In this document: one piece after another, positions 11,491 to 26,936 of the stretch | Position numbering within the stretch: position 1 is the stretch's first letter | Layout of the letters: every line of letters begins with the position of its first letter | Assembly (NCBI GenBank): GCA_045114455.1 | Contig: JBGUKN010000078.1 | Coordinates: 7,085 to 71,084 of the forward strand | Reading direction: 5' to 3' | Length of the DNA stretch: 64,000 nt | Source: Victivallales bacterium | GTDB taxonomy: Bacteria > Verrucomicrobiota > Lentisphaeria > Victivallales > UBA1829 | Notes under the pieces: generated by a model | What the model saw: only the letters and a program-made list of their open reading frames with translations | What the model was told of the DNA's origin: nothing | Databases searched by the model: none | Made by a program: the position numbers and the translations under genes

Positions 11491-11506
11491 CCACAACATC
11501 TTGTGG
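11491..11506. promoter_or_regulatory. NrdR box 1
   Basis: CCACAACATCTTGTGG, near-palindrome matching acaCwAtATaTwGtg, 44 bp upstream of nrdG start. Confidence 0.85.
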
Positions 11507-11517
11507 TGTTCCGGTAT

Positions 11518-11764: not shown

Positions 11765-12991
11765 TCAGCCTTCGGGAACTCCGCGGGATGCGAGTCCCTT
11801 GTGGCGGGGCAGATATCCGAACTTGTAGTACAGGAGGCATGCGAGCATAAGCGCGGGGAAGAACGCGGCCGCGAGGAGCCCGGTTTTGAGGTCTCCGCCG
11901 AAGAACGATGCGATCTTTCCGACATATACCGGTCCAAGTCCGCAGCCGAAGTCGCCGGGCAGGGCGAGCAGCGCGAACATGGCGGTCCCTCCGAGGGGGA
12001 TCGCGACCGATGCCGTGCTGAATACGCCGGCCCAGAGGATGCCCGCCGACCAGCCGACAAGCGCGCATCCGGCGAGCGCGAGGGCGGGATGCGGCGCAAA
12101 GACGGCGGTGAGGTAGGCGATGATGCTGAGCGTGCAGCTCGCGATGAGGCAGTTGACGAGGTTGAGACGCGTGCTGAAGACTGCGTAGAGCGTGCGGGAA
12201 AGCCCCATGAGGAATGCGAAGAGGCATGGTCCGGCGAGGTCGCCGACGCTTTTCCTGATGTTCAAAGTCGATTCCGCGAACGTTGACGCCCACTGGGTCA
12301 TGCAGTGTTCGGCCGCGCCCGCGCAGAGCATCATCACGGACATGAGCCAGAAGACCGGGTGTTTGAACAGAGCGAGGATGCCGAGTCCTCGTTTTTCTCC
12401 GGCGATCAGCGGGCGCATCGGCACGAACATGAAGTAGATCCCGTCGAGGAGCGGGACGGCGGCCCAGATCAGCGCAAGGAATCGCCAGTTGTCCAGCCCG
12501 AAGCGGCGGAAGAAGAAGGTCGAACCGAGCACGACGATCATCAGTCCCCAGCAGTAGAAGGAATGCACCAGACTCATCGCGGCGGCTTTCCGTTTGAACG
12601 GGCATGCCTCGACCACGGGGCTGGTGACCGCTTCCACGACGCCGCCTCCGACTGCGTACAGAGCGACCGCGCAGGTCAGTCCGGCGAGCGGAGACGGCAT
12701 GAGTTCGGGCAGGACGGTCATGAGCGCGAGTCCGGCGGCGGAGCAGAACTGCCCGATGACGAGCGTGAGGCGGCAGGAGATCATGTCCGCGAGTTTGGCG
12801 CAGGCGAACGCCACACACATCTGAATCCAGAAGTTTCCGAGGATCACGGGCCAGAGCTGTTCGCGTTCCAGTCCGTATGCGTCGTTGAACCACAGGAAGA
12901 GCAGCGGCGCGAATCCGTTGACGATGGCCTGCGTGACGTAGCTGATGTTGCACGCATGGAGCGTGTGAATATAATTGTCCCGGATGCTCAT
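11765..12991 (-). CDS. MFS transporter (fucose-permease-like)
   Basis: About 12 hydrophobic segments, AAAMSLVHSFYCWG; start MSIRDNY overlaps the upstream stop (ATGA). Confidence 0.88.
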   Translation of the reverse strand: MSIRDNYIHTLHACNISYVTQAIVNGFAPLLFLWFNDAYGLEREQLWPVILGNFWIQMCVAFACAKLADMISCRLTLVIGQFCSAAGLALMTVLPELMPSPLAGLTCAVALYAVGGGVVEAVTSPVVEACPFKRKAAAMSLVHSFYCWGLMIVVLGSTFFFRRFGLDNWRFLALIWAAVPLLDGIYFMFVPMRPLIAGEKRGLGILALFKHPVFWLMSVMMLCAGAAEHCMTQWASTFAESTLNIRKSVGDLAGPCLFAFLMGLSRTLYAVFSTRLNLVNCLIASCTLSIIAYLTAVFAPHPALALAGCALVGWSAGILWAGVFSTASVAIPLGGTAMFALLALPGDFGCGLGPVYVGKIASFFGGDLKTGLLAAAFFPALMLACLLYYKFGYLPRHKGLASRGVPEG

Positions 12992-13596
12992 GGCAGAATG
13001 CTTCTGATCCAGCTGAAACAGTCCATGCCGTCGGGGACCTCGAAGGACTCCACGCCGTTTTGAGCTTGTTCGAACAGGAAGGCGGCGGCGAATTCCATCG
13101 ATTCGAGGCCGAGCAGTTTCATAGTGCGGTCGGCGAACGGAGAGCGTTCTTCCGTCAGGATCACAATGACCCGTTCGGCGTCTCCCGCAGTCAGGACGGC
13201 ATTCGCAAGCGAGAAGACGCGTTCGGGAAGGCGGTCGAATCCGGCCAGGGAGAAGATCGGGACTTTCATCCCGAAGTGGATGGAGGCGGTGCCGGGGACG
13301 GCGTTGTGGACGGAGCACGAGAACGAAATGGGGCCGATCTGGTCTTCCGGGAAGTCGATCAGGTCGTTCTGGAGCGCGGTGATGCGACTCTGCACGCCGA
13401 GCATGCTGCCGAACAGGAGCGGCACGTCGCCGGGGCGGCCTTCGAGCCGGTCGAGCGCGGAGAGGACTGCCGCGGTCATGCGGTCGGACCGCCGTCCGAG
13501 TCCGAGGCGGGCGCGTTCGGCGCGGAGAAAATTATCGTCCCAGCGCAAATCGGCGCCTGGCGAGGTGAAGGAGGATGCAAGCAGATGAAGCGCCAT
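12988..13596 (-). CDS. beta-ketoacyl synthase chain-length factor (Ketoacyl-synt_2, ApeC-like)
   Basis: GPISFSCSVHNAVPGTASI motif; lacks KS catalytic triad; directly after a KS gene. Confidence 0.82.
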   Translation of the reverse strand: MALHLLASSFTSPGADLRWDDNFLRAERARLGLGRRSDRMTAAVLSALDRLEGRPGDVPLLFGSMLGVQSRITALQNDLIDFPEDQIGPISFSCSVHNAVPGTASIHFGMKVPIFSLAGFDRLPERVFSLANAVLTAGDAERVIVILTEERSPFADRTMKLLGLESMEFAAAFLFEQAQNGVESFEVPDGMDCFSWIRSILP

Positions 13597-13599
13597 GAT

Positions 13600-14811
13600 T
13601 CAACCCAGCCTTTCCGCGATGAGAACTGCGTCTGTGCCGCCGAACGCAAGCGAGGTCGAAGCCGCGAAACGCGTTTCCGCGGGAAGATCCAGCGGCGAGA
13701 CCAACGGTGCGCAAGCGAGCGCGGGATCGGGCGTTTTGCAGCCCGGACTGGCCGGGACGAAACCGTCCCGCAGCATGAGCATGGCGAAGATGAATTCGAG
13801 CGTGCCGGCGGCGCCGAGCGTGTGTCCGGTGAAACGTTTCGTGGAGAGGAACGGTGGCGCGGCGAACCCGGCTTCTTCCGCCAGTCCGGCGAACGCCGCG
13901 GCCTCGCACCGGTCGTTCAGGACTGTTCCCGTGCCGTGCGCGTTGATAAAAGCGATGTCGCCAAGCGTAAGTCCGGCACGGACCAAAGCGTCCCTGAATG
14001 CGCGTCTCATTCCGTTTCCGGTTGCGTCCGGCGCGGTAATGTGCGATGCGTCGCATGACATGCCGAAACCGCGCAGGGCGAATTCCGGCTTCCCTCCGTG
14101 TTTCCGGGCACATTCGGGCGTTTCCAAAATCACGACGCCTACACCTTCGCCGAGGTTCAGTCCGGCGCGTGCGGAGTCGAACGGACGGCACGGGAAGGGC
14201 GAGGTCACGCCGAGTACGTGGAACCCGGCGACCGGGGTGCGGTGGAGTTCGTCCGCGCCGATCACGATCATGCGTTCGCACTGGCCGGAAAGAAGGCAGA
14301 GCGCGGCGATGGAAATGGCATCCGCGCCGGAGGAACATGCATTGGAGACCGTGTGCAGGGGGCCGGTCAGTCCGTATTCGCGGGCGACCGCCTCCGCCGG
14401 GTTGGAGTTCAGGAAGCGTTCCACCGGGGCATTTTCCTCCATGTCCGGGGCTTCCCTCAGCCGTGCGTAGTAGGCCGTATCCGTGAACTGCTGGGCAATC
14501 GTCGTGCCGACGACGCATCCCGTCACGGTCTCGCGGAGCATGCCGGGCGTGAGTCCGGCTGCCTCCAACGCCCGCGGCACGACGGCGCGGATCATGGAGA
14601 GCGTGCGCAGTTCGTCCTGCGCGTTTTGAAAGGAATCGACGAAAAACACCTGGTCGCGGATCGCCGAGTCGATCAGATCGCACGCGGGACGCGGCGTTTC
14701 AGGCGCCCGTTCGCCCCGGAACAGAGCGATCGCGTCCGCGTCGGTCTGCCCGGCACAGGAAAGATGTGCGAAGCCCGTCACGACAGGATCAAAAGCCATT
14801 CTGCGGATCAT
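13600..14811 (-). CDS. beta-ketoacyl-ACP synthase (KS3, ApeO-like)
   Basis: SNACSSG, NAHGTGT, GHTLGAAG (Cys-His-His intact); start at ATGA overlap 14811. Confidence 0.92.
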   Translation of the reverse strand: MIRRMAFDPVVTGFAHLSCAGQTDADAIALFRGERAPETPRPACDLIDSAIRDQVFFVDSFQNAQDELRTLSMIRAVVPRALEAAGLTPGMLRETVTGCVVGTTIAQQFTDTAYYARLREAPDMEENAPVERFLNSNPAEAVAREYGLTGPLHTVSNACSSGADAISIAALCLLSGQCERMIVIGADELHRTPVAGFHVLGVTSPFPCRPFDSARAGLNLGEGVGVVILETPECARKHGGKPEFALRGFGMSCDASHITAPDATGNGMRRAFRDALVRAGLTLGDIAFINAHGTGTVLNDRCEAAAFAGLAEEAGFAAPPFLSTKRFTGHTLGAAGTLEFIFAMLMLRDGFVPASPGCKTPDPALACAPLVSPLDLPAETRFAASTSLAFGGTDAVLIAERLG

Positions 14812-15716
14812 GCGCGGTCCTCCCATACGTTTTCAAACAGGAAACAATCATAAGGATGCCGCATGGCCATGCGTTCGAGCGTATCGGCATAAGCCTGGAC
14901 ATCCGCCTGAAACTTGATCCCGCCGCGCGCGCGGCGTTCGGGGCGCACGATGGTTCCGAATTCGAGCAGAAGCTCGCGATAGGACTTTCCCCGCGTCAGG
15001 AAGAACGGCACGACCGGAGCATGCGCCTTCGCCGCCAGGAAAAACGCCGCCGCGGGGAAATGCGCGGTCTCCCCGAAAAAGCGAACCGGCACGGAGCCGG
15101 ACTCCAGGCAGCGGTCGCCCATAAGCCCGACCGCGCCGCCCGATTCGAGCGTTTCGAACGCCTCCAGCAGCCCGCCGAAAGCGCCCGCGGTGTCGATGAT
15201 GTGCATCGGGGCGGCTTCGCCGCCGCTGAACGCCCTGCTTTTGTCGACGTCTGCGTTCCGGTCCGGCCTCGCGACGAACGCGACCTCTCGTCTTCCGGCG
15301 TTCACGCAGTGCATGGCGGCCTGCCATGCGCCGAAATGGGAGCAGAGGAAGACGAGTCCGCCGGGTGCATTCCGGCAAGGCAGAAAAACATCGGGATTCG
15401 TTTCCCGGACTTTCGCCTGACCGTTGGCAAGCGCCAGCGCCATGACAAGCGCCTCGCCCTGCGAGGTGAAGAGCCGCCAGACATGGCGTTTCATGCGGAA
15501 TCCGCGTGCCTCGGGAAAACGGTGTTTCAGATAGGGCAGGGCGCGCTGCTGCGCCTGGCTGTCCGTGAGCGCATAGACGAGCGCGATGAACTTGACGAGG
15601 AAGCATGCGGCGCCCGGACCGAAGACGGACAGGATCCCGCGTACGATCGCGGAGCCCAGCTTCGTTCCTCGCGTGTCGCTCAGGTTTGCGGCGGGCTGTG
15701 CGGATGCGCGGTTCAT
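14808..15716 (-). CDS. lipid A lauroyltransferase-like (LpxL family) acyltransferase
   Basis: LCSHFGAWQ, LMGDR, VRFFGETAHFP; start MNRAS overlaps GT stop (ATGA). Confidence 0.82.
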   Translation of the reverse strand: MNRASAQPAANLSDTRGTKLGSAIVRGILSVFGPGAACFLVKFIALVYALTDSQAQQRALPYLKHRFPEARGFRMKRHVWRLFTSQGEALVMALALANGQAKVRETNPDVFLPCRNAPGGLVFLCSHFGAWQAAMHCVNAGRREVAFVARPDRNADVDKSRAFSGGEAAPMHIIDTAGAFGGLLEAFETLESGGAVGLMGDRCLESGSVPVRFFGETAHFPAAAFFLAAKAHAPVVPFFLTRGKSYRELLLEFGTIVRPERRARGGIKFQADVQAYADTLERMAMRHPYDCFLFENVWEDRA

Positions 15717-16888
15717 GTGCGGACGCTCCTTCTGCGGATGACAGCGCGGCAGAGTTCGGCGGAACAATAAACGATGACGGCGAAGATCGCGGCGAATACC
15801 GGAGCGAGGATGATGCTGCCGAGAAGCCACTCGAACCAGCGCAGATGAATCTCCCTGACCGTGCTGTGGAAATTCAGGTCTTCCGGGAGCAGGAACCTGC
15901 CGTGCCGCAGGAAATAGCCAAGTTCGATGCAGAGGACCGGGCAGACCGGCGGCATGAACGGATGCTGCGCCATGACCGCCATCGCTTTGTTGAGGTGAAG
16001 GCGTGCGGCGACATAAAGGATCAGGATCGTGCAGAAGCCGTACGTCGGATACACGGCGAGGAGCGCGCCGACGAACGCGGAAAAAGCGAGACCGAGCGAG
16101 GACGTATTTTCCTTGACGAGCCATGCCCAGAGCTCTTTCGGTTTCCAGAGCCGCGGATATTCGCGGGGCGTCTCCCTGAGTCTTCTGACGCCGAACGGGA
16201 CGAGGCGGCGGAGCACGAGGCGCGTGTGAAGCCAGGTCATGCGCCAGTTGTCGCGGAAGGGATGAAAATGCGAGACGCGTTCGCCGGGTGGGTCGTAGTG
16301 CGTGGAGATCGGGACTTCGGCGAGTTCGAGGCCGGCCCACATGCAGCGCGTGAGCAGTTCGGTCTCGAAGGTGTAATGAAGCGAAGAGCACCTGATCTGC
16401 GAGATATACTTGAGCGGGTAGGCGCGGAACCCGCTCTGCGAGTCGGAAATCTTCTTCCCTGTTTCGACTAGGAACCAGAAGTTGGAGAACATACGGCCGA
16501 ATTTGCTTCGTCCGGGCACGTTCGGCACGGAAAAATCGCGGACTCCCGCGACAAGCGTCCAGTCGTTCCGTTCCAGCAGGGGCAGGAAACGCGGGATGTC
16601 CTCCGGATCGTGCTGGGCGTCGGCGTCGAGCGTGATCATGTAGTCGTAACCGCGCGGCGCGAGCGTGCGGATCGCGGTAAGGAGAGCCGCTCCCTTTCCC
16701 ATGTTATGCGGATGCCGGATGACTTCGATGCCCGTTCCGGCAAAGTGTTCCGCGAGATTAAGGTCTTCCGATCCGTCGTCGATCACGAGGACATCCGGCA
16801 TGACGGCGCGCGTCCGTTCGATCACGGCGGGGGCCGTAGAAGCATGGTTGAAAACGGGGATCACGCAGCAGCAGCGCATAGCGGGCAC
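15713..16888 (-). CDS. GT2 glycosyltransferase fused to DUF2062 membrane domain
   Basis: VIPVFNH, DDGSED, NMGKGAAL, TLDADAQH, DSQSGFRAYP; hydrophobic C-terminal domain. GTG 16888 or ATG 16879 start. Confidence 0.88.
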   Translation of the reverse strand: MPAMRCCCVIPVFNHASTAPAVIERTRAVMPDVLVIDDGSEDLNLAEHFAGTGIEVIRHPHNMGKGAALLTAIRTLAPRGYDYMITLDADAQHDPEDIPRFLPLLERNDWTLVAGVRDFSVPNVPGRSKFGRMFSNFWFLVETGKKISDSQSGFRAYPLKYISQIRCSSLHYTFETELLTRCMWAGLELAEVPISTHYDPPGERVSHFHPFRDNWRMTWLHTRLVLRRLVPFGVRRLRETPREYPRLWKPKELWAWLVKENTSSLGLAFSAFVGALLAVYPTYGFCTILILYVAARLHLNKAMAVMAQHPFMPPVCPVLCIELGYFLRHGRFLLPEDLNFHSTVREIHLRWFEWLLGSIILAPVFAAIFAVIVYCSAELCRAVIRRRSVRT

Positions 16889-16909
16889 CTCTGACTCGTC
16901 CCCCCAGCG

Positions 16910-17539
16910 TCAATCGGCTCGGAAGACGCGCCGGGCGAGCGATTCGGGGTCGGAATCGTCCGGGATCTCAAGCGTTCCGCCGGGTTCCGCCAGAAGAACG
17001 GTCAGTTTGCCGGATCCGTAGTGGCAGATCATGACGCGCCGGATGCCGGGCATTTCGAAGAAGTTGGAGACTTCGTCCCAGAGAACGGGGAAACGTCCGA
17101 GTGTGTCCATGTAGAAGCACGGCCCCGTGAGCTTGAGGGAAATCGCGGCTTCGCACGGCGGCGTGGTCGGGAGCGTGCCGACGAAAAGATGTCCACGCCC
17201 GAGGTGGCGTCCGTGTTCGCGGTAGTCGTTGAAGTAGTTCAGGTTCTGTTCGTGGCAGCCTTCCCGTCCGAAGTCGACGATGGCTGTTTCCCTGATCGAA
17301 TCGACTTCCGCGTCGCGGTGCGCGAGGACGGCGGCAAGAATGTAGGTGCGGACTTTCGCGTCGCCGCGCCGGAAATTGTCGAGCCCGTAGACGTGCGGGA
17401 AATCGTCCTGGACAGCCGAGACTTTCGCCTTGGCGTCCTGCGTATCCTCCGCCGTACAGACGAGGCCGCGGCGCCAGGTGCGGAAAGAAAGCCCTTCTGC
17501 CGTGACGCCTCCGATGATATGCCAGGGGTATGCGCTCAT
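16910..17539 (-). CDS. degenerate KS / chain-length-factor-like protein
   Basis: FVGTLPTTPPCEAAISLKLTGP resembles the CLF motif F..TLPN...EIAI...GP; start overlaps KS2 stop (ATGA). Confidence 0.68.
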   Translation of the reverse strand: MSAYPWHIIGGVTAEGLSFRTWRRGLVCTAEDTQDAKAKVSAVQDDFPHVYGLDNFRRGDAKVRTYILAAVLAHRDAEVDSIRETAIVDFGREGCHEQNLNYFNDYREHGRHLGRGHLFVGTLPTTPPCEAAISLKLTGPCFYMDTLGRFPVLWDEVSNFFEMPGIRRVMICHYGSGKLTVLLAEPGGTLEIPDDSDPESLARRVFRAD

Positions 17540-18645
17540 GATACGGCCTCCAGGATGATGACGGCGTTCAGGCCTCCGAAACCGGAGTTCATGCACAGGA
17601 CGCGAGGTTTTTCGAGTTTGCGGATTTCGGTGGAGACATAGCGGGCGGCTTCCGGTTCGGGCGTAACGAGCGACGTCTGAGGCGGGATCAGACCTGTCTC
17701 CAGCATGCGGACGCCGACCACGGCTTCCACAAGCCCGGCGCCGGCGAGCGTATGTCCGTTTGCGCCCTTCACGGAAAGCATCGGCACGGAACGTTCGCCG
17801 AAGACGCGGTGGATCGCCTGAAGCTCCATGTCGTCGTTGTAGCGCGTCCCCGTGCCGTGCCCGATGACCGCGCCGATGTCGTCCGGCGTGAGTCCTGCTT
17901 CGTTGAGGGCGTGGACGATGGCTTCGGAAAGCGCTTCGCCGTGTGGCATGGGCGCCGTGATATGGACCGCGTCGCAGCTCATGCCGCCGGACGCCAGGAT
18001 CGCGCGCGGTTTCAGGCCGAGTTCGGCGGCCTTTTTCGCGGAACAGATGTTCACGATGGACGCGGCGTCGCCAAGCAGAAGCCCGTCGCGGTTGCGGTCG
18101 TACGGACGGGCAATCGTGCGGGCAAGGGCGCGAAGCGTGGCGAACCCGGAGAAAATGAATTCGCTGACGTAATCGGTGCCGATCACGACCGCGGAGTCGA
18201 GGCGGCCGCTGCGGATGTGGCGGTTCAGCGAGACGAACGCGGAGTTCGAGGACGCGCAGGCGGCGGACACGATGCGGCCGCGTTCCTTGTCGCAGACCTT
18301 CAGGGCGCGTTCCAGCAGCATGTCGCAGGTGCAGCGGCGTTCGGGGTTGTCGATGTATTCGATCTCGCCGACCGTACTGGCGAGAAAAAGTTCGGCGTCG
18401 CGCGGCATCTTCTTCGCGGTCGGGGCGAGATAGTCCAGGAAGAATCCGGGAATCTCCTGCGTGCCGTTGACGTCCGCGCCGGGCGCCATTGCCGCCAGGG
18501 CGGTGGAAAATTTCTCGTTGTGGAACCGGGAGCAGTCGGAGAATGCGGCATGATTGTTCAGAAGCCCGTCCCAGCATGCCTCCACGCCGGGCCCGAACGC
18601 GGTGTACAGGTCGCAGCCGACGATCACGGGAGTACGGTCATCCAT
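17536..18645 (-). CDS. beta-ketoacyl-ACP synthase (KS2)
   Basis: SAACASS, GHGTGT, GHTLAGAG catalytic motifs. Confidence 0.92.
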   Translation of the reverse strand: MDDRTPVIVGCDLYTAFGPGVEACWDGLLNNHAAFSDCSRFHNEKFSTALAAMAPGADVNGTQEIPGFFLDYLAPTAKKMPRDAELFLASTVGEIEYIDNPERRCTCDMLLERALKVCDKERGRIVSAACASSNSAFVSLNRHIRSGRLDSAVVIGTDYVSEFIFSGFATLRALARTIARPYDRNRDGLLLGDAASIVNICSAKKAAELGLKPRAILASGGMSCDAVHITAPMPHGEALSEAIVHALNEAGLTPDDIGAVIGHGTGTRYNDDMELQAIHRVFGERSVPMLSVKGANGHTLAGAGLVEAVVGVRMLETGLIPPQTSLVTPEPEAARYVSTEIRKLEKPRVLCMNSGFGGLNAVIILEAVS

Positions 18646-19120
18646 GATGGTATGCTCCTTCTTTCCAGCGTTTCAGAAACTCTTCCCAGAACAGCGGGAC
18701 ATGCCAGAGCGGCGTGAAGTCGCGGGCGTCGATGAAGACCTGCGTGGTGCATCCGGTCGCGGCAATGCGGCCGTCTTCCAGCCGGATCGCATATTCGATG
18801 TTGATACGCGGAGCATCGGTCCAGATGAGGGACGCCGAGGTGTGGAACAGGGCGTCGCAGGGAAGCGGGATGCGGTAGTCGTATTCGTCGTGGTAGAAGA
18901 GCGCGGAGACGTGTTCCGCCTCCAGACGGTCGTTGTCGAATCCGAAGCTGTGCGAAAGCTCGGTGTAGGCAGCCTCGAAAAACTTCGCGTAGTTGCCGTG
19001 CCAGGCGATTTTCAGCGGATCGGATTCGCTGAACTGGAGACGGCGCGCGACGCTGACTTCAAGCGGCTGAGGAGAACCGGGGGTGCGTTCAAAATACTGC
19101 TTGAACTCGGAATGTCTCAT
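18638..19120 (-). CDS. hotdog-fold acyl-CoA/ACP thioesterase (4HBT/YbgC-like)
   Basis: FSESDPLKIAWHGNYAKFFE motif. Confidence 0.85.
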   Translation of the reverse strand: MRHSEFKQYFERTPGSPQPLEVSVARRLQFSESDPLKIAWHGNYAKFFEAAYTELSHSFGFDNDRLEAEHVSALFYHDEYDYRIPLPCDALFHTSASLIWTDAPRINIEYAIRLEDGRIAATGCTTQVFIDARDFTPLWHVPLFWEEFLKRWKEGAYHHG

Positions 19121-19500
19121 GATGCGCTTTCTTTGGGAGCGAGAACCAGTTTCGCGGCAGAGACGCGTCCGCCCTCTTCGTTCACAAATGAGGCGTTTGC
19201 CGCCCAGATACCTTCAGTTTCTCCTGGCTCAAGCTCCAGCGTGAGCGTGACCGGCATATCCGGCGTGATCAGGCGGAGATACTTGATGCGGCGGACGCCG
19301 GCAAGACGGAGCGGACGACCGAGGCGGCGTTCCGCCAGACGGCGAATGAAGGAAAGCTGGACGATTCCGGGCAGAATCGGATTGCCGGGGAAATGTCCGC
19401 GGTAGCCGGAGAATGTGCCGGGAACGGAGAACGTGCAGGGGCCTTCGCCGTTTTCTCCGGCCTGATTGTAGATCGAATCGATTTCATCCCAGATGCTCAT
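19117..19500 (-). CDS. 3-hydroxyacyl-ACP dehydratase (ApeI/FabZ-like)
   Basis: YRGHFPGNPILPGIVQL motif. Confidence 0.85.
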   Translation of the reverse strand: MSIWDEIDSIYNQAGENGEGPCTFSVPGTFSGYRGHFPGNPILPGIVQLSFIRRLAERRLGRPLRLAGVRRIKYLRLITPDMPVTLTLELEPGETEGIWAANASFVNEEGGRVSAAKLVLAPKESAS

Positions 19501-19512
19501 GGTTCGCTGTCC

Positions 19513-22500
19513 TCAAAAAAGCTCCGATACCGACAGGATCAGCCGGTATCCGTGTTTATTATTGTCGTAGACGATGATTTCAGGAAAAAAAGTCGTATCT
19601 AATATAATATACCGGAAATACCAGGATTGCCAGTCAATAGTTTTGTTTTTAAAGTAATATTTGCTCATAACGGGCAATTTCGGCCCCCAAAACTCGCTGA
19701 CGATCTCTCCGCCGTCGTCGCCGAAGGGTTCCCGGCGGATGATTTTGCTGTCGTCTTTTACAATTTCTGTCGCGCCGGGTTTTGTGCCGCGCCAAGGTTC
19801 CAGCCCTCCGAAAATGTTGAAAAAGTCTTCCAGGATGAATCCGGCCGCCTCCTGTTCGTGTCCTTCAAGGAAGTCGATCGGCATGAACCAGTAATCCGCG
19901 AGCTCGTCCGCTGTGCCAGCCAGTTCGAAGATCTTTCCGCCCGACGGAGAAAACGCCGCCACGCGCAGTTCGCCGGATTCGTCGTAGGAAACGGCGCAGA
20001 GCGTGGCCTGGGAGAAGAATCTGTATTCGAATGTGACGCGACCCTGGAATGCGAACGGCTGCATCGGCGCGGCAGGCGGCTGGACGGCGTCGCGGTAAAG
20101 CGGCCAGTCGGTTTCCGTCAGGGGCGGGATCGGGTCATATTCGTAGGGGAGGGAATGGCAGGCGGAAACATTGAGCAAAAGGAAGACGGGGGCCAGGGCG
20201 AAAAGGAGTGTTTTGAGCGGAGCGGCGGGTCTGTCTTTCGCGATTCCGCGGCGGATGGACGGCAGGAGCAGGGCGGCGGCGCCCCAGGCGGCAAGCACCC
20301 CTGGGACCAGGGCGAATCCGGCTTCGTGCAGGAGCGGATGCCCCGCGAACGCGACGGTGAGGCCGCCGGCGGCGGTCGTGAGCGCGGAGGCTGAGATCGC
20401 GCGGAAGACATACGGATTCGCCGCGGAACGTTCGCTGCCGATCACGAAGACGCCGTAGTCGATGGCGAGGCCGGATAGCAGAACCAGCGCGATTTCGGCG
20501 GCGAGATTCAGAGGTTTGCCGCAGACAGCGTACACGGCGCAGACGGCCAGGAGCGCCATCGCCACGGGGATCATCGCGCAGAGGCTGTCCCGGATGCCGC
20601 GGAAGAAGAGGAACGCGATCGCGAAGACCGAGAGAATGGCGAGGATCACGGGGAGCGTCGCGGCGGATTTCATATCGGACACGATCTGAGCGGGGATGTC
20701 CGCTCGGGAAATGGCGACGGCTCCTAAGATGTTGTACGGGACAGGCTGCCTGTTTCCGACTCCGGGTTGATGTTTGGCGAGTGCCAATTGCGGCAGGAAG
20801 ATCGCCGCGTACCAGCCGTTGCCGTCCGCCGCCGGGCGCAGGATGCGGTTCAGTACGGGCGTAAAGACTTCGGGATAGGAATCAAGGTCGGGCGATTCGA
20901 GGCCGCGTTTGAGCGAGGTGAGGAACGGATCGAATGCGTCCGGTTCGAATCCTTCGTCTTCCGCGGCGGCACGGAGCGATTCCGCAAACTTGTCATAATC
21001 GAAGCCCTCGCGCCAGGAAGCAAGATGGATCTCTCGAATACTTTTCGCCGGAATCAGAAAAGACGGGGAGAACATCCTGCCCTCAAGCCCGGGATCCTTC
21101 ACGAGAAAATCGTCGCAGATCAGGCTGGCGAACATCAGCGCTGTGTCCGCATCCTTGCCGGGCACGGCAAGCACGCTCTGCGCCGGGCCGTCGAGGAAGA
21201 GGCGTTCCACAGCGTCAGCCGTTTCGCTGAGCTTCTCCTGTGCGGCGTCGAACTGGCGGAGATCGGTGCGGACCGTGAGCCGCAGGATCGCGAGTGCGGC
21301 GAACATCGCCATGATGCCGAAGCAAATGCCGGATGCGAGTTTCGGGGAGATCGTTTTCAGGGGATGCGGTTTCGGCAGGGGCTTTTTCGTGCGGATCAGG
21401 ATCGACGGGAACAGCAGAAGTGTGAGAAACAGGCTGGCGAGCAGGCTGGTCCCGATGAACACGCCGAACTGCCGCACGCCGGGGATCGGAGTCAGCGCGA
21501 GCAGAAGAAAGACGGCAGCCGAGGTCGCGGCACCCGTCAGCAGGGACGGCGCGATGCGGATCAGACGGCGCACGGGGCAGGGCGTCTGCATGGTCATGTA
21601 CACATGGACGCCGTAATCGACTGCCAGCCCGATCACGAGCCCGCCGGTGGCCGTCACGAAGAGCAGGACGGGTTCACCGGGGATCGCGAGGAGTCCGACG
21701 GCGGCGAACGAGACGACCGCCGGGAAGACGGGGATCGCCAGCGCGCGCAGGTCGCGGCGGAACAGCAGCAGGATCGCGGGCAGGAAGAACAGGACAGAAA
21801 GGATGCACGCGAGTTTCACGTCCGATTTGATGACGCGTTCGTTTTCGATGGAGTGGGCGTGGGCGAGCAGAAGGTCGGCGCGGATGCCGGACAGGGGATG
21901 CTTCGCGAGGATGGCATCAAGATCGCCCATGAGCCGCCGTCCGCCCGCGGTATCCGCGGCGGAAACGTCCGTTTCGAGCAGAAGAAGCCGGTGGAGGCCG
22001 TCCGGGGAGACGATGGCCGTTTCGCCGTCCTTCAGCCGGAACGATGCGGCGGAGCGGAACTGTTCGAGCACGGCGAGTTTCGACGCGGCGAAGCCGGTCG
22101 GGTCGGCAAGCACAAGCGAGGCAAAGCCGCCAAGCAGAATCTTTCGCTTGACAGAAGATGCGATCGAGGCGGAATCAAGAGGTTCATAAGGCTGAAACTG
22201 CGGCAGCCATTCGGGAAGCGAAGAAAGGACCGCGGCAATGTCGTCCGGCAGAAAGCGGTTGTCGACGCGCGTCACGCCGGGGACGGACGCGATTTCGGAG
22301 GCAATGAGGTCGATTTCCGGAGACGCGGCATCCAGCTGTTCCGTTTTGTCGGCGGAGAAGAGGACGGCGGACTGATTGAAGAGACCGGAGTTCAGGAGCA
22401 CGGCGCAGGCGCGTTCGGACTTGCTGCCGGAGGGGAGCATGCGCGTGATGTCGGCGCTGAACGACGCAAAGAGGAGCGGAAGGGCTGCGAGGACGAGCGC

Positions 22501-22575
22501 GAGAAGCGACAGGAACGCCGCGAGGACCGGGCGCCGAAGACCGAACAGAATGACGCGCCGCAAAAAGGATTTCAT
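19513..22575 (-). CDS. MMPL/RND-type lipid exporter fused to C-terminal lipoprotein-like (DUF3261-like) domain
   Basis: Start MKSFLRR at ATGA overlap; two TM bundles with GLAVDYGVH and GLAIDYGVF; continuous frame into VSAC-containing soluble domain. Confidence 0.85.
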   Translation of the reverse strand: MKSFLRRVILFGLRRPVLAAFLSLLALVLAALPLLFASFSADITRMLPSGSKSERACAVLLNSGLFNQSAVLFSADKTEQLDAASPEIDLIASEIASVPGVTRVDNRFLPDDIAAVLSSLPEWLPQFQPYEPLDSASIASSVKRKILLGGFASLVLADPTGFAASKLAVLEQFRSAASFRLKDGETAIVSPDGLHRLLLLETDVSAADTAGGRRLMGDLDAILAKHPLSGIRADLLLAHAHSIENERVIKSDVKLACILSVLFFLPAILLLFRRDLRALAIPVFPAVVSFAAVGLLAIPGEPVLLFVTATGGLVIGLAVDYGVHVYMTMQTPCPVRRLIRIAPSLLTGAATSAAVFLLLALTPIPGVRQFGVFIGTSLLASLFLTLLLFPSILIRTKKPLPKPHPLKTISPKLASGICFGIMAMFAALAILRLTVRTDLRQFDAAQEKLSETADAVERLFLDGPAQSVLAVPGKDADTALMFASLICDDFLVKDPGLEGRMFSPSFLIPAKSIREIHLASWREGFDYDKFAESLRAAAEDEGFEPDAFDPFLTSLKRGLESPDLDSYPEVFTPVLNRILRPAADGNGWYAAIFLPQLALAKHQPGVGNRQPVPYNILGAVAISRADIPAQIVSDMKSAATLPVILAILSVFAIAFLFFRGIRDSLCAMIPVAMALLAVCAVYAVCGKPLNLAAEIALVLLSGLAIDYGVFVIGSERSAANPYVFRAISASALTTAAGGLTVAFAGHPLLHEAGFALVPGVLAAWGAAALLLPSIRRGIAKDRPAAPLKTLLFALAPVFLLLNVSACHSLPYEYDPIPPLTETDWPLYRDAVQPPAAPMQPFAFQGRVTFEYRFFSQATLCAVSYDESGELRVAAFSPSGGKIFELAGTADELADYWFMPIDFLEGHEQEAAGFILEDFFNIFGGLEPWRGTKPGATEIVKDDSKIIRREPFGDDGGEIVSEFWGPKLPVMSKYYFKNKTIDWQSWYFRYIILDTTFFPEIIVYDNNKHGYRLILSVSELF

Positions 22576-23252
22576 TTTTTCTGCTTCGCCTGCCAGAGAT
22601 CGTCTGGGATATCGGAGTCGAAGACGGAATCGGAGTAGACGAGCTCGGTCACGTCGCCGTTTTTCTCGGATGCGCGGACTTTCACGATCTTCGTTTTCGA
22701 GTCGTCGAGCGCGAGTTCGACTTCGGTGATGAGCGAAGCTGCGAAACGTTCGGAACGCGGCTTCAGGACGACCGTGCCGTCCTTGCCCTGCGCCGCCTCG
22801 AAATCCTTCTCCAGCGCCTTCACGTCGCCGGACGCAAAAGCAGTCATGGCGTCGGACAGCATTTCCAGCATCGGATATTTGGAGAACGGCACGGAGACGG
22901 TCCTGTCGGAATCGGCGTCCCACTGGGTGAGCTTGCCGTCTGCGATGATGCAGGAATATTTGAGCGGTTTTTCAACGTGCCAGGCGAACCGCTTTCCGGG
23001 ACGGTCGAGGCAGAGTTCGCCGTTCAGGACCATTGGCTTTTTGAAGGATTTGAGGTGTTTCGTCTGTACGAATTTCGTACGGAGCGTCCTGAAGTTCGCG
23101 ATGTTCGCCAGGAGCTCCGCCGTGTCGCTGCCGGCAGGCCGTTCCGCCGCGGGTTCCGCATGGACTGGAGCCGCGGACTCCTCCGCGAAGACAGAGAAGA
23201 CGCAGGCGGACAGAGCCGCCGTCAAAATTCGAAGGAAGGACGAAAACCTCAT
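22572..23252 (-). CDS. LolA-family outer-membrane lipoprotein carrier
   Basis: Signal peptide MRFSSFLRILTAA; FVQTKHLKSFKKPMVLNG, FAWHVEKP, KNGDVTEL. Confidence 0.85.
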   Translation of the reverse strand: MRFSSFLRILTAALSACVFSVFAEESAAPVHAEPAAERPAGSDTAELLANIANFRTLRTKFVQTKHLKSFKKPMVLNGELCLDRPGKRFAWHVEKPLKYSCIIADGKLTQWDADSDRTVSVPFSKYPMLEMLSDAMTAFASGDVKALEKDFEAAQGKDGTVVLKPRSERFAASLITEVELALDDSKTKIVKVRASEKNGDVTELVYSDSVFDSDIPDDLWQAKQKK

Positions 23253-23728
23253 TTCTCGTAGTTGGTCAGAAACAGTTTCAGCGTGCCTTTCGCAGCGGGC
23301 TTCCCGTTGACGGATGCCTCGTACCCGATGCCGCGCCATTTGCCGAGGTCGTACTGGACATTGATCAGGATGTCTATCTTGTCGCCGACATGCGGGACGG
23401 CGGTGTACTCGGAGTCGACGACTTCGACCAGAAGTCCGCCGAAGGATTTGTCCTGCCGCTGGTAGGCGTCGAGCGCGGCTGCGGACTGGGCGGCGTATTC
23501 GATGAACGTTTCCGCGCCGGTGGAGCCGTCCGCGCCCGCCAGAGGATGGTCTGGATGCACCACGGAAGACGTCTTCCCGCCCTGGTCCCATTCATCGACG
23601 ATCGTATCGATCAGCGCAAACGGTTCGCCGTGCGGGAGCAGTCCGGCGGCGGGGTAGGGCAGCTTGGCACGCAGTTCTTCGTGATTCAGGGGCGGCTTGT
23701 TTGTTTTCGGAGTTTCGGATTCGGCCAT
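23249..23728 (-). CDS. hotdog dehydratase (ApeP-like)
   Basis: LLPHGEPFALID and IEYAAQSAAA motifs. Confidence 0.8.
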   Translation of the reverse strand: MAESETPKTNKPPLNHEELRAKLPYPAAGLLPHGEPFALIDTIVDEWDQGGKTSSVVHPDHPLAGADGSTGAETFIEYAAQSAAALDAYQRQDKSFGGLLVEVVDSEYTAVPHVGDKIDILINVQYDLGKWRGIGYEASVNGKPAAKGTLKLFLTNYEK

Positions 23729-23763
23729 GATGATGGAATTCCTTATGTGCTGATATGTTATGT

Positions 23764-24555
23764 TCAAGTTGATTTTGCGGAAGAAAGAAAAAACGGATAG
23801 CGGCGTTCCTGTTTCCATGCGTCGATCTCGCGGTCGAGCGCGGCAGTCTCCTCTTCGAGGATGTGATGCACTTCCCGCTGGATGCGGAAATGCGGCTCGG
23901 AGGCGATGCGTTCCTGCGGGACCGGCTTCAGGACGCGCATGATGACGCGGCCGGGACGCATGCGGAAGGAACGGTCCGGGCAGTTCTCGTTGCCTGCGAT
24001 GGCGACCGGGATCAGCGGGGCGCCGAGTTCCTTTGCGGCACGGAAGAACGCGCTGTGGAAAGGCGCCATGGTACGGGATCCGGAGCGCGTTCCTTCCGGG
24101 AAGACGTAGATGGTGCCGGAATTGCTCAGGGCACGCCGGGTCTGCTCCACGATCTGCTCGTAGGTGAGGTTGTTCACGTCGATGAAGCCGCCCATGCGCG
24201 CGAAAACGCCGAAGAACGGCATATGCAGCGCCCAGCCTTTCGCGGCGGCCATCGCGGCGCCCGCGGCGGGGATGATGGAGACCAGGAAGGGATCGGAAGA
24301 GGAACGGTGGTTCACGACGAAAATGCCGTGGTTTGCGCCGCCGGAGAAGTCGTCGAGACGGACCGGGACGTAGACGCCGTACCAGCAATGGACCATGAAG
24401 CGGCCGAAGGTGCGGATGAATTTCAGGACCGCGACGTTGAACGGCCTCCCTGTGAGGAGACAGAATATCCCCGCGATCAGGAAAAACGGCGAGGCCAGAA
24501 TGCAGTAGAGCATGATGCAGACGACCATGTGCGTGTAAACGATCAGGGAGAACAT
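23764..24555 (-). CDS. PlsC-like lysophospholipid acyltransferase
   Basis: NHRSSSD (HX4D), VFPEGTRS, N-terminal TM helix. Confidence 0.9.
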   Translation of the reverse strand: MFSLIVYTHMVVCIMLYCILASPFFLIAGIFCLLTGRPFNVAVLKFIRTFGRFMVHCWYGVYVPVRLDDFSGGANHGIFVVNHRSSSDPFLVSIIPAAGAAMAAAKGWALHMPFFGVFARMGGFIDVNNLTYEQIVEQTRRALSNSGTIYVFPEGTRSGSRTMAPFHSAFFRAAKELGAPLIPVAIAGNENCPDRSFRMRPGRVIMRVLKPVPQERIASEPHFRIQREVHHILEEETAALDREIDAWKQERRYPFFLSSAKST

Positions 24556-24599
24556 CTCCGGCTCCTGTGTGGTGCTGGGCGGGGCAGATTGAATGCGGG

Positions 24600-24932
24600 T
24601 TATTGTCCGGGTTCCTGCGGAGGCTGTGCGGAGGCCGCCTGCGCCGCGGCCGCTTTCGCGGCTTCGGCCTGCGCCGTGAGCATCGCCTGGTTCCTCTCGA
24701 AGAAATCGTAGACGTCTCCGAGCGTGCGGACCTGTTTGATCTCCTCGTTGTCGCGGAGAGAGATGCCGAATTTGCGCTGGAGCCCGATCATGAGGTCGAC
24801 CATGTCGAGGCTGTCGAGCCCGAGGTCCTCGAAAAAGGTCTTTTCGGGGGCGAGGTCGGCGGGGTCGAGTTCCATTTCGTTGACGAGGGCGCCGTTGACG
24901 GCCTCGATGATTTCGTCGCGTGTCAGATTCAT
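24600..24932 (-). CDS. acyl carrier protein with Ala-rich C-terminal tail
   Basis: EDLGLDSLDMVDL phosphopantetheine site; GGAGG upstream of ATG 24932. Confidence 0.93.
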   Translation of the reverse strand: MNLTRDEIIEAVNGALVNEMELDPADLAPEKTFFEDLGLDSLDMVDLMIGLQRKFGISLRDNEEIKQVRTLGDVYDFFERNQAMLTAQAEAAKAAAAQAASAQPPQEPGQ

Positions 24933-24958
24933 ATCAGGATTCCTCCGGGGAAGGTTGT

Positions 24959-26185
24959 TTATACGTTGAGCTTGCAGATCAGGGAGGCGTTGATGCCCCC
25001 GAACGCAAAGGAGTTTTTGAAGAAAATGCGGATTCGCTTTTCGCACGGGGCGGTCACATGGTCGATTCCGGCGCAGGCGGGGTCGACGTCGACGAGATTT
25101 CGGGTCGGGATCAGGATCCCGTGTCGCGCCATTTCGAAGACGGCGGCCATTTCCAGCGGACCGGACGCGCCGAGCGTGTGCCCGAGGTGGCCTTTGAGGC
25201 TGGATACGGGGACGTTCGCGCCGAACACTTCGCGGATGGCCGCGGCTTCGGCGGCGTCTCCCTGGAGCGTGGATGTGGCATGCGCGCTGATGTAGTCGAT
25301 GTCCGTCGGCGCGATCCCGGCGGACTTGCAGGTGTCGTTCATGCATCGGGCGATGGCGGGCGCATCGGACTGGCTGAGGCCGTTTCCGCCGCTGTTCGAG
25401 GAATAACCGATGATCTCGCCGTAAATTATCGCACCGCGCCGGAGCGCATGCTCATATTCCTCCAGGCAGAAGACCGCGGCGCCCTCTCCGCAGACCAGCC
25501 CCTTGCGGTGCGCGGAGAAAGGCTGTGAACTTTCCGTCGGATCGCCTTCCGCGGGGGCGTGTGCGTACATCAGGGCGAACGACCCGGAGACTTCGGAGCC
25601 GGTCTCGTCCGCGCCGCCGCAGAACATGACCGTTTCCTGTCCGGCAGCGATGAGCGCGGCGCCGAGCCCCATGGACTGAAGCCCGGAGGCGCATGCGGAA
25701 CACGGCGAGTAGATCGCGCCGTTGAGCCCGAGCGTGCGGGCGAGGTTGAATGCCGTGGTATGGGAGGCGCATTTGAAGAAGTGCATCGGGGAGAGCCTGT
25801 CGCTCTGCCCGAAAAGGACAAGGCCATAGCCTTCGCGCAGGGTGCTGACGGACCCCATGGTGGACCCGACCGCGCATCCGGCGTTCAGTTCGATCAATTC
25901 ATCCTGCGTGAGCCCGGAGTCCCGCATGGCGGCAAGCCCGGCCATCGCAGTAAAACACGCAGCGGGAGCCATGGCGCGGCGGAGCGTGCGGGGAAGGACG
26001 CGGAAGCGTTCGGGATCGCGCGGGGCAGGGGCGGTCGGCAGGAAGTTTTCTTCTTTGCCGGCGGAGACGGCGGCGCTTTTTCCTGCGGCAAGATTGTCGA
26101 AAAGCTCGCCGGGGGTAAAGCCGAGCGCGCTGTAGATACCGCTTCCCGTGATGACGACTCGTTTCAGACCGTTCATGCGCCGCAT
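24959..26185 (-). CDS. beta-ketoacyl-ACP synthase (KS1, FabF/ApeR-like)
   Basis: SACASG, AHATST, GHTLGASG, NSFAFGGINA; alternative start 26176. Confidence 0.93.
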   Translation of the reverse strand: MRRMNGLKRVVITGSGIYSALGFTPGELFDNLAAGKSAAVSAGKEENFLPTAPAPRDPERFRVLPRTLRRAMAPAACFTAMAGLAAMRDSGLTQDELIELNAGCAVGSTMGSVSTLREGYGLVLFGQSDRLSPMHFFKCASHTTAFNLARTLGLNGAIYSPCSACASGLQSMGLGAALIAAGQETVMFCGGADETGSEVSGSFALMYAHAPAEGDPTESSQPFSAHRKGLVCGEGAAVFCLEEYEHALRRGAIIYGEIIGYSSNSGGNGLSQSDAPAIARCMNDTCKSAGIAPTDIDYISAHATSTLQGDAAEAAAIREVFGANVPVSSLKGHLGHTLGASGPLEMAAVFEMARHGILIPTRNLVDVDPACAGIDHVTAPCEKRIRIFFKNSFAFGGINASLICKLNV

Positions 26186-26207
26186 CCCCCGTGAATCGTG
26201 AAATGAC

Positions 26208-26936
26208 TCAGCATACGAGACCTCCGTTGACGCCGATCACCTGCCCGGTGATGTAGGCGGAATACGGTCCGGCAAGGAAGGACACGACGGACGCGACTTC
26301 CTCCGGTGCGCCTTTCCGTCCGAGGGGAATCAGCGGCAGGAGCTTTGCCATGTCCAGGTCGCGCGTCATTTCCGTGTCGATGACGCCGGGCGCGACGGCA
26401 TTCACAAGGATGCTTCTGCGCCCAAGCTCTCCGGCGAGCGCCTTGACGGCGCCGATAAGCCCGGCTTTCGCGGCGGAATAATTGACCTGTCCGGGTCGTC
26501 CGACCTGGCCCGACGCGCTGCTGATGACGATGATGCGGCCCCGTTTCGCGGAGATCAGCGGCTGGACCAGCGGCTGGATGCAGTTGTAGAAACCGTCAAG
26601 CCCGGTCCGGATCACGTCATCCCATTCCGCGGAGGTCATCCAGGCAAAAAGGTCGTCTCTGGATATTCCGGCGTTGTAGACGACCGCATAGGGCGGCCTG
26701 TCGGAGAAAAGCTCCGTTATGGTGCGAATGCTTTCCGTCCGGTCGGTCACATCGAGCGAAACCGGCAGAAAGGACCGTCCCAGCGACTCGATCTGTTTGC
26801 GCAGGCCGTCGAGACGGGCCGTGTCGCCGCGGCATGAGGCCGCGACGTCGAAGCCGTCCTGAGCCAGACGCAAAGCCGTCGCGTAGCCGATGCCGCGCGA
26901 CGCCCCGATGACAAAAGCGAGACGATCCGATGACAT
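26208..26936 (-). CDS. fabG: 3-oxoacyl-ACP reductase (FabG/ApeQ-like), first gene of cluster
   Basis: GASRGIG, NAG, NYSAAKAG (YxxxK), VNAVAPGVIDTEM; start trimmed to MSSDRL. Confidence 0.92.
   Translation of the reverse strand: MSSDRLAFVIGASRGIGYATALRLAQDGFDVAASCRGDTARLDGLRKQIESLGRSFLPVSLDVTDRTESIRTITELFSDRPPYAVVYNAGISRDDLFAWMTSAEWDDVIRTGLDGFYNCIQPLVQPLISAKRGRIIVISSASGQVGRPGQVNYSAAKAGLIGAVKALAGELGRRSILVNAVAPGVIDTEMTRDLDMAKLLPLIPLGRKGAPEEVASVVSFLAGPYSAYITGQVIGVNGGLVC

Follow-up and report, generated by a model that had tools for sequence, protein, structure and literature searches.

An aryl-polyene/flexirubin-type gene cluster with no aryl-starter module in a 64-kb window from a Victivallales bacterium

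The window studied here, a 64-kb stretch of Victivallales contig JBGUKN010000078.1, carries a 16-gene operon (g01 to g16, Table 1) related to the aryl polyene (APE) and flexirubin gene clusters. Within the window, the cluster is without the whole aryl-starter module, that is, an ApeH/FlxY-type ligase, an ApeE-type acyl carrier protein (ACP), and a methyltransferase. On balance, we favor the reading that the cluster is the Victivallales version of the aryl-polyene-lipid (APE/flexirubin) pathway without this module. Its product, as judged from gene content, is probably a conjugated polyenoyl glyco(phospho)lipid that has no aryl head and is exported to the outer membrane. APE-type clusters form the most widespread family of biosynthetic gene clusters (BGCs), one that is partly characterized, and the present cluster is an unusual member of it rather than a new system. 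It is unusual mainly in having no aromatic-starter loading enzyme and in having a second pair of ketosynthase (KS) and chain length factor (CLF).

An initial annotation of the window assigned the cluster to the right family and called it the best candidate in the window for a new biosynthetic system. The latter claim is too strong, as BGCs of the 'aryl polyene' class have already been counted by antiSMASH in metagenome-assembled genomes (MAGs) of Lentisphaerae, with 65 such BGCs in MAGs from the Caprinae gut (PMC9769736) and a further report from a Victivallis-related human-gut genome (PMC8863827). The same account left unnoticed the most distinctive feature of the cluster, its missing aryl-starter module. 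In our literature searches, Lentisphaerae APE clusters appeared only at survey level, and neither a characterization nor an aryl-free form was found. The full lipid products of APE-type clusters are known from a single organism, described in one preprint.

An aryl-free cluster, if our reading is true, would rank as the first 'minimal' APE-lipid system from nature, isolating the poorly understood half of the pathway that supplies the conjugated fatty acid and the lipid anchor. It would also occur in strict anaerobes, for which the usual antioxidant rationale is doubtful. Such a variant would be a clean system for the study of non-aryl products, chain sorting, and the purpose of the second KS/CLF pair. 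It would caution against reading every 'arylpolyene' call by antiSMASH in MAG surveys of the gut and rumen as an aryl compound, and it would point to an uncharacterized outer-membrane lipid in the abundant, uncultured Victivallales of the rumen.

Absence of the aryl-starter module

All proteins of the apeA–R region of Escherichia coli CFT073 were compared with those of the window. Similarity between the cluster and the ape genes was reciprocal, and the top NCBIfam models of the cluster proteins included PRK09116, PRK09185, PRK05350, FlxB, and LolA2_flexi, in agreement with the family assigned at the outset. Thirteen of the 18 E. coli functions have a counterpart in the window (ApeQ, R, F, D, P, L, M, I, K, O, C, and J, and the role of ApeN), with ApeO and an ApeC-like protein each represented twice. 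The other five have none: ApeA, the methyltransferase ApeB, the starter ACP ApeE, ApeG, and the ligase ApeH. As in the ape cluster, there is no enoyl reductase (ER), a KS-CLF heterodimer occurs along with a FabB-like KS, and the dehydratases form an ApeI/ApeP pair. The logic of lipid anchoring and of export by Lol-like and resistance-nodulation-division (RND) proteins is likewise the same as in E. coli CFT073 and Xenorhabdus doucetiae. Unlike ape, the window has an extra KS/CLF pair, whose CLF family is without a Pfam model; ApeJ is split, with its glycosyltransferase (GT) half bearing a DUF2062 domain; and ApeM is fused to a LolB-like protein. Gene order differs as well, and identities are only 23–45%, so the cluster is no gene-for-gene match to E. 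coli ape, the sole characterized cluster with which it was compared.

Neither an AMP-binding protein nor a second ACP nor a methyltransferase emerged from the Pfam and NCBIfam scans of the cluster. The other called genes of the window fall outside these families, and a tblastn search of the 64 kb with the ligases of relatives gave no match. In 12 species with clusters whose proteins are 80–97% identical, no ligase, ApeE-type ACP, or methyltransferase was present in the fetched flanks, which extend up to 10 kb on each side of g11. The aryl-module genes were also not found within 10 kb, counted from g07, in L004 (loci of relatives are designated by L numbers).

The sole ACP of the cluster, g03, has 45% identity to ApeF (E = 3e-18) and matches ApeE only at 3e-5. 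Its alignment to ApeF is gapless, and it is without the insertions and Gly-rich motif of ApeE; its score for PRK05350 is 63.3 bits against a cut-off of 65. In Acinetobacter baumannii, ApeE serves as the starter ACP and works with the benzoyl-ACP synthetase ApeH, and ApeF is tuned for malonyl transfer (PMC12624758).

Comparison with more distant loci places this absence in context. In 10 more distant Victivallales loci, a FlxY-like ligase is found at the junction of the acyltransferase and ApeP genes, and in the window this junction is a 35-bp gap with no ligase remnant. L030 and L032 are collinear with the window cluster except for a FlxY-like ligase between the acyltransferase and ApeP. FlxY is the best model for the relatives' ligases, and the two that were scored reached 364–390 bits against a cut-off of 520. 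The fuller Victivallales clusters (L006, L022, L028, and L033, together with L030/L032) share the order ACP–acyltransferase–...–ApeP–LolA–MMPL–ApeI–thioesterase–KS2–g11–GT–LpxL–KS3–CLF, with protein identities of 31–77%. They add the FlxY-like ligase and often a TIGR04072 B12/radical SAM 'lipid biosynthesis' enzyme. L006 further adds a CrtD-like desaturase, as does L002, and L006 and L022 add a second ACP and a second AMP-ligase. None of these occurs in the window clade, which instead has, unlike the fuller clusters, an ApeR-like KS (KS1) and a ketoreductase (KR) at its 5' end. Because distant collinear relatives add the ligase and other enzymes that are absent from the window, the window clade is taken to have a reduced form of a family of Victivallales clusters that, where more complete, resemble those for flexirubin; relatives carry a FlxY-like ligase and two ACPs.

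The window cluster itself resembles the flexirubin (flx) clusters of Flavobacterium johnsoniae and Chitinophaga pinensis in its KR, for which FlxB is the best non-FabG model, and in g06, for which LolA2_flexi is best. Unlike the flexirubin equivalogs, both proteins miss the cut-offs (245 vs. 340 bits for FlxB and 78.6 vs. 125 bits for LolA2_flexi). Flexirubin clusters also have the GT2 and acyltransferase in separate genes. Unlike them, the window is without FlxY and tyrosine ammonia-lyase (none among the called genes), and the cluster is without the dialkylresorcinol genes DarA and DarB. All of its KSs are of the FabF/B type, with no KAS-III/DarB-like or DarA-like gene among the 16.

KS-CLF heterodimers with a KR and a dehydratase but without an ER are also found in the ishigamide (Iga11/Iga12) and cispentacin (AmcF/AmcG) systems, and the structure model of g11 matches the Iga12 and actinorhodin CLF chains, a likeness to highly reducing type II polyketide synthases (PKSs) of actinomycetes. 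The Iga11/Iga12 and AmcF/AmcG systems differ in having no lipid-anchoring or outer-membrane export genes, in their phylum, and in their products.

Predicted lipid product and its alternatives

The APE lipid of Xenorhabdus has a glycerol-phosphate-GalNAc backbone with three acyl groups (bioRxiv 10.1101/2020.12.19.423268). According to the same preprint, the aryl polyene is on the sugar, with ApeJ adding GalNAc and then acylating it; the sn-2 position carries a non-aryl, conjugated 26:5 3-hydroxy acyl chain that ApeD attaches and for which ApeF is the proposed carrier during synthesis; and the third acyl group is a saturated chain. By homology, the window cluster keeps everything needed for the non-aryl branch and the scaffold of such a lipid.

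In the pathway we propose, KS1 and the two KS/CLF pairs, along with the KR and the ApeI/P-like dehydratase, would build a polyenoyl-ACP. Malonyl units would be condensed, reduced, and dehydrated, but not enoyl-reduced, yielding a conjugated chain that would resemble the 26:5 conjugated acyl half of the Xenorhabdus APE lipids. An ordinary acyl (or acetyl/malonyl-derived) starter is proposed because the ApeH/FlxY ligase, ApeE-type ACP, and methyltransferase are missing. The PlsC-type enzyme g04 would put the chain on a lysoglycerophospholipid, g12 would add a sugar to the lipid phosphate, and g13 would acylate that sugar, with a chain that the second KS/CLF pair may supply. The LolA-like g06 and the MMPL/LolB-like g07 would carry the lipid to the outer membrane. 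The starter, chain lengths, sugar, and order of steps in this scheme are all inferred from homology. As a complete account—a rumen clade that turned an APE/flexirubin-type pathway aryl-free, with one ApeF-type ACP and two KS/CLF pairs building one or two polyenoyl chains, a glycerophospho-sugar lipid to carry them, and export through an MMPL-LolB-like fusion—it is tentative, and we put it somewhat short of an even chance.

Several points weigh against an aryl-free polyenoyl lipid. Most matches to curated APE/flexirubin models score under cut-off. The case for a polyene relies solely on the cluster having no gene for an ER, a function that FabI or FabK of the housekeeping pathway could provide in trans. 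The roles of the KS/CLF pairs and the order of transfer are extrapolated from the preprint, which deals with a distant gammaproteobacterium. The sequence inspected for a starter ligase comprised 64 kb here and up to ~20 kb per relative, and a ligase could be encoded elsewhere. Last, KS1 keeps a Phe at the position of AbApeR Tyr135, a residue said to stack on the aryl group, and this Phe is compatible with an aromatic substrate.

The last two points bear on the alternative that the cluster makes a true aryl polyene or flexirubin-like pigment, for which the ligase (and perhaps the starter ACP) would be encoded elsewhere, or for which KS1 would take an aryl-CoA directly. The FlxY-like aryl-acid ligases of relatives of the same order speak for such a pigment, as do the antiSMASH surveys in which Lentisphaerae clusters are labeled 'aryl polyene', the fact that the genome is seen only in part, and the Phe residues of KS1 at the Tyr135-equivalent position and at Cys+38. 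The Phe at Cys+38, however, is invariant across all KSs compared and is uninformative about an aryl substrate. The ligase, ApeE-type ACP, and methyltransferase, moreover, are missing together and consistently across about 13 species, the 35-bp junction holds no remnant of a ligase, and the 64-kb window yielded no aryl-related gene. We regard an aryl product as unlikely, with a chance that is still appreciable.

The acyltransferases of the LpxL and PlsC types, the GT2 enzyme, and the Lol-like export proteins would suit any envelope glycolipid, and an antioxidant pigment is less obviously useful to an anaerobic host. These considerations suggest a second alternative, namely that the product is not a polyene but a saturated, monounsaturated, or 3-hydroxy (very) long-chain acyl group, made with the help of the enoyl reductase of the cell and destined for a specialized glycolipid or a lipid-A-like envelope lipid. 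We think this quite improbable, as the cluster is without an ER and combines an ApeI/ApeP heterodimer-type pair of dehydratases with KS-CLF pairs of the ApeO/ApeC type, both hallmarks of the highly reducing type II PKSs that form polyenes. APE-type clusters have also been reported in other gut-associated genomes, e.g., those of Prevotella and Treponema.

Enzymes, acyl carriers, and export proteins of the cluster

Domain labels were derived from Pfam and NCBIfam scans of the 16 cluster proteins. The functions named in the initial annotation hold, with the ApeP-like g05 confirmed by profile and the CLF-like g11 by a structure model.

Table 1. Genes of the cluster and candidate promoter, with positions in the window.
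Feature	Description	Positions	Strand	Basis
g01	3-ketoacyl-ACP reductase, ApeQ-like KR, 242 aa	26208..26936	-	Pfam adh_short_C2, 2e-48
g02	KS1, ApeR-like FabB/F-type ketosynthase, 408 aa	24959..26185	-	Pfam ketoacyl-synt N and C domains
g03	Sole ACP, ApeF-type, 110 aa, Ala/Gln-rich tail	24600..24932	-	PP-binding; DSL motif
g04	PlsC-type lysophospholipid acyltransferase, ApeD-like, 263 aa	23764..24555	-	Pfam Acyltransferase, 6.5e-19
g05	Hot-dog dehydratase subunit, ApeP-like, 159 aa	23249..23728	-	Profile match to ApeP; LPHxxP and ExxAQ conserved
g06	Periplasmic LolA-like carrier, ApeL-like, 226 aa, signal peptide	22572..23252	-	Pfam LolA, 2.6e-12
g07	RND/MMPL transporter (ApeM-like, residues ~1-775) fused to LolB-like domain, 1020 aa	19513..22575	-	Weak Pfam MMPL
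g08	Hot-dog dehydratase subunit, ApeI-like, 127 aa	19117..19500	-	HFPGNPxxPG motif; ApeI-like and FabA matches under cut-off
g09	4HBT/YbgC-type thioesterase, ApeK-like, 160 aa	18638..19120	-	Pfam 4HBT_2; ApeK 30% identity, 1e-8
g10	KS2, short ApeO-like ketosynthase, 369 aa	17536..18645	-	Pfam; ApeO 37% identity, 7e-43
g11	Predicted CLF-like KS2 partner, truncated ketosynthase fold	16910..17539	-	Structure model; Pfam and NCBIfam both blank
g12	GT2 glycosyltransferase with C-terminal DUF2062 membrane domain, 388 aa	15713..16879	-	Pfam GT2, DUF2062
g13	LpxL-type acyltransferase, 302 aa	14808..15716	-	Pfam Lip_A_acyltrans, 5e-19
g14	KS3, ApeO-like ketosynthase, 403 aa	13600..14811	-	Pfam; ApeO 35% identity, 8e-47
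g15	Chain length factor, ApeC-like, KS3 partner, 202 aa	12988..13596	-	Pfam Ketoacyl-synt_2 (PF13723), 6.5e-13
g16	MFS transporter	11765..12991	-	MFS_1; ATGA overlap with g15, co-transcribed
Promoter	Candidate, sigma-70-like	27026..27053	-	TTGAAA-16-TGxTACAGT, ~90 bp upstream of g01; consensus scan only, not functional evidence

The KR has 45% identity to E. coli ApeQ (E = 1e-64). Its NCBIfam score for FabG, 273.7 bits, barely reaches the cut-off of 273, while its scores for FlxB (245.4 bits) and FabG2 lie under theirs. KS1 has 37% identity to ApeR (E = 4e-76), and its top NCBIfam model is PRK09116 (310 bits; cut-off, 470). KS2 carries a deletion of ~32 residues in its N-terminal domain relative to KS3 and aligns with the AmcF model along its entire length (177 bits; cut-off, 325), whereas the top model for KS3 is PRK09185 (229 bits; cut-off, 407). 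The Cys-His-His-Lys active-site residues are kept in all three KSs. The CLF g15 matches A. baumannii ApeC (PDB 7f28_A) with an E value of 0.002, and its family profile matches ApeC at 1.4e-4.

For the dehydratases, a profile of the g05 family built with E. coli sequences excluded matches E. coli ApeP at E = 8e-9. The precomputed Pfam table assigns g05 to PF22817 (ApeP-like), whereas hmmscan against Pfam finds no family for it even at E = 10. The second subunit, g08, has 32% identity to ApeI (3e-9; profile, 1.5e-13), and its matches among PDB sequences are 3esi and the X. doucetiae ApeI chain 6qsr_A. No ER domain was detected by Pfam among the 16 genes. ER, FabD, and FabH are absent from the cluster and from the gene families identified elsewhere in the window, and no Acc, FabI/K, or FabV genes are present in the cluster.

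A further alternative is that these genes are simply the housekeeping type II fatty acid synthase (FAS) of the host. The KR just reaching the FabG cut-off and the FabF/FabB-type KSs are in keeping with this idea. Unlike a housekeeping type II FAS, however, the cluster has no FabD, FabH, or ER and, further, no Acc genes or FabI/K/V. The three KSs score 195–310 bits, far under the FabF/FabB equivalog cut-offs of 494–630, and their top matches are APE-cluster families. CLF partners, a thioesterase, a GT, and dedicated LolA/MMPL export genes are present as well, and the content of the cluster varies among Victivallales. A housekeeping role is thus hardly credible.

The identity of g11 was settled by structure prediction and an exhaustive profile search. 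Sequence searches were uninformative: phmmer and profile searches against PDB sequences gave nothing meaningful, and hhalign yielded only a weak alignment (3% probability) to g15/ApeC. The AlphaFold model (predicted local distance difference test (pLDDT) score, 83.6) has A. baumannii ApeC (7f28_C) as its best PDB match, with an E value of 9e-5 and a modest template modeling (TM) score of 0.44–0.46. The remaining PDB matches are all KS/CLF folds, e.g., Iga12, the actinorhodin CLF, and X. doucetiae ApeC. The exhaustive search recovered 351 representative clusters of the g11 family. Among its distant members are fusion proteins, in which the g11-like part is joined to a KS at the C-terminus of the latter (P0299, P0314, and P0327) or joined to GT2-DUF2062 (P0240), and some distant members weakly match PF00109. 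These results point to g11 being a KS-derived, CLF-like partner of KS2.

We also noted a stand-alone pair of KS2-like and g11-like genes in L008 (2007–3760), located beside a RiPP-like (ribosomally synthesized and post-translationally modified peptide) set consisting of a radical SAM/SPASM protein, ScmC, and a C39-peptidase ABC transporter. The KS/g11 pair therefore also exists outside APE-type clusters.

Among the lipid-assembly proteins, g04 has N-terminal transmembrane segments and NHRSSSD and FPEGTR motifs, and its family profile matches ApeD at 3e-11. The two halves of ApeJ are represented by g12, which has 32% identity to ApeJ residues 8–261 (4e-35), and by g13, which has 24% identity to ApeJ residues 246–550 (5e-9). 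The NCBIfam models nearest to g12 are those of lipid-phosphate sugar transferases (AglJ, PpgS, and ArnC), all under cut-off. LolA2_flexi is the best model for the carrier g06, and the g06 family profile matches ApeL at 2.6e-14.

The transporter part of g07 has HAE3 and HpnN matches and 23% identity to ApeM (profile, 1.7e-28). Its last 245 residues open with the positively charged RRGIAKDR, a hydrophobic helix, and NVSAC with an invariant Cys806, which together constitute a complete lipoprotein-type signal. The C-terminal domain was modeled as a β-barrel with a helix (mean pLDDT 67.8, which is moderate, with most of the core at 70–93), and its top PDB matches are LolB and members of the LolA superfamily (8cm1, E = 8e-7). 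Against E. coli ApeN, the C-terminus gave a marginal profile match, and Pfam was blank; P0051, a distant g07 homologue, has a weak match to DUF3261. ApeN (DUF3261) has been assigned a LolB-like role in the literature. The structure model suggests that the C-terminal domain of g07 takes the role of ApeN, and this domain may be released as a lipoprotein through cleavage at the internal lipobox. The fusion of MMPL to a LolB-like domain, with an intact internal lipoprotein signal, gives direct genetic support to the proposed ApeM/ApeN partnership.

Locus, relatives, and genomic neighborhood

The 16 genes are co-directional and span exactly 11765–26936, as defined by stop-to-stop open reading frames (ORFs) with third-position G+C content and by start-codon placement; the border at 11765 is the stop of the transporter gene g16, and that at 26936 is the ATG of the KR gene. 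ORF analysis and domain scans thus agree with the minus-strand operon described at the outset, in the order KR, KS1, ACP, PlsC-like acyltransferase, ApeP-like dehydratase, LolA, MMPL fusion, ApeI-like dehydratase, thioesterase, KS2, CLF-like protein, GT2-DUF2062, LpxL-like acyltransferase, KS3, CLF, and major facilitator superfamily (MFS) transporter. Neighboring genes are separated by -8 to +44 bp. The many ATGA overlaps first noted come to seven literal ones, and an eighth junction overlaps by 8 bp. The candidate promoter lies within a divergent intergenic region of ~370 bp. Rfam and tRNA scans found no RNA elements within the cluster, and a terminator scan returned as many matches as did shuffled sequence. 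The strongest hairpin and T-run of the region (19526–19550, minus strand; 9-bp stem, GGAGCTTTTT tail) is in the final codons of g07, before g08, where it might act as an attenuator within the operon or as a site of RNA processing at which the operon is split.

The cluster had been described as atypical in composition. This does not hold for base composition: its G+C content is 62.6%, compared with 60.1% in the remaining window, and that of each gene is inside the range of its neighbors. A horizontally acquired island was considered and rejected, as G+C content is ordinary and the flanks consist of housekeeping genes and are syntenic in relatives.

The MFS gene g16, which the initial annotation counted within the cluster, is present and linked by its overlap, but it is probably a neighbor and not a pathway component. 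It is missing from the otherwise identical clusters of the close species L009 and L014, in which the gene that comes next is encoded on the other strand. Homologues of g16 with ~52% identity are numerous, those with names being from Clostridia, and in L038 a 60% identical copy adjoins nrdG-nrdD-trxB without any cluster genes in the vicinity. PDB and NCBIfam searches with g16 gave no match. We considered and rejected an LplT-like lysophospholipid transporter feeding the PlsC-like enzyme, as g16 has no similarity to E. coli LplT. The pathway core is accordingly treated as 15 genes.

Genes for g11 occur in 27 GTDB species, all Victivallales or Lentisphaeria where named to order or class, and most of these are from rumen MAG sets, with a few from the human gut. 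The g11 family is without a Pfam model. The same gene set, with proteins 80–97% identical, is found in 12 of the 27 species, and in L003/L004 the flanks are syntenic too, with a sulfatase-family gene upstream and nrdG-nrdD downstream. The MMPL protein g07 has about 50 relatives at 72–89% identity, the named ones being Lentisphaeria MAGs. The cluster is therefore a trait stably kept in the chromosomes of a rumen clade of Victivallales. Since close relatives named to order or class are Victivallales/Lentisphaeria MAGs, the organism itself is placed as a rumen Victivallales of the Planctomycetes-Verrucomicrobia-Chlamydiae (PVC) group. The genes adjoining the cluster are consistent with an anaerobic lifestyle, since they include those for the anaerobic ribonucleotide reductase, nrdDG. 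Both the PVC placement and the probable anaerobiosis had been proposed from the start.

The TIGR04072 (rSAM_ladder_B12) enzyme of L006 (10609–11946; 424 bits, cut-off 360) is a B12-binding radical SAM enzyme encoded between the g11-like CLF and the GT2-DUF2062 gene. Homologues with 38–84% identity occur in L022–L026, L028, L033, and L034, and the enzyme is absent from the window and its clade. The L006-type cluster is a richer, unexplored Victivallales lipid pathway. In L002, a distant APE-like cluster from sample ERR11029037, we observed at 7933–9390 and 13253–14740 an ApeP-like dehydratase fused to a radical SAM/SPASM domain and a phosphatidylserine decarboxylase following an ApeI-like gene.

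Upstream of the cluster and divergent from it, a gene at 27308–28957 on the plus strand (longest ORF from 26969) encodes a membrane protein with a C-terminal Sulfatase domain and an architecture like that of LtaS, EptA, and OpgB. It was not included as a cluster member, as its synteny is seen only in one close relative (L003/L004) and it is absent from the distant loci. Its conserved neighbor in L003/L004 is a gene for a 1561-aa protein with a weak CarboxypepD_reg match (29157–33842, plus strand). On the other side of the cluster is an nrdG-nrdD operon followed by a thioredoxin-reductase-like gene (7334–11582, minus strand); NrdD has a C-terminal glutaredoxin-like segment, and the NrdR repressor is at 2326–2814 on the plus strand. 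Downstream of nrdDG and the trxB-like gene are a phytoene-desaturase-like Amino_oxidase gene (5729–7288, minus strand) and a gene for a 301-aa protein without a family match (4604–5509, minus strand). The former was rejected as a displaced version of the relatives' CrtD-like desaturase, as tblastn revealed no similarity at E < 1e-3.

The remaining housekeeping and other genes of the window encode LeuRS, AspRS, Gmk, NrdR, NrdDG, a CLC channel, glycoside hydrolases, and an alpha-2-macroglobulin. The last is a bacterial protein of 2068 aa with MG2, A2M, bait-region, and MG10 domains (35885–42091, minus strand), and after it comes a protein bearing a pilin-like motif for N-terminal methylation (42986–43879). 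A tRNA-Val (TAC) at 58957–59032 on the minus strand overlaps the 5' end of the longest aspartyl-tRNA synthetase ORF (57021–58991), and the true start of the synthetase therefore lies further downstream.

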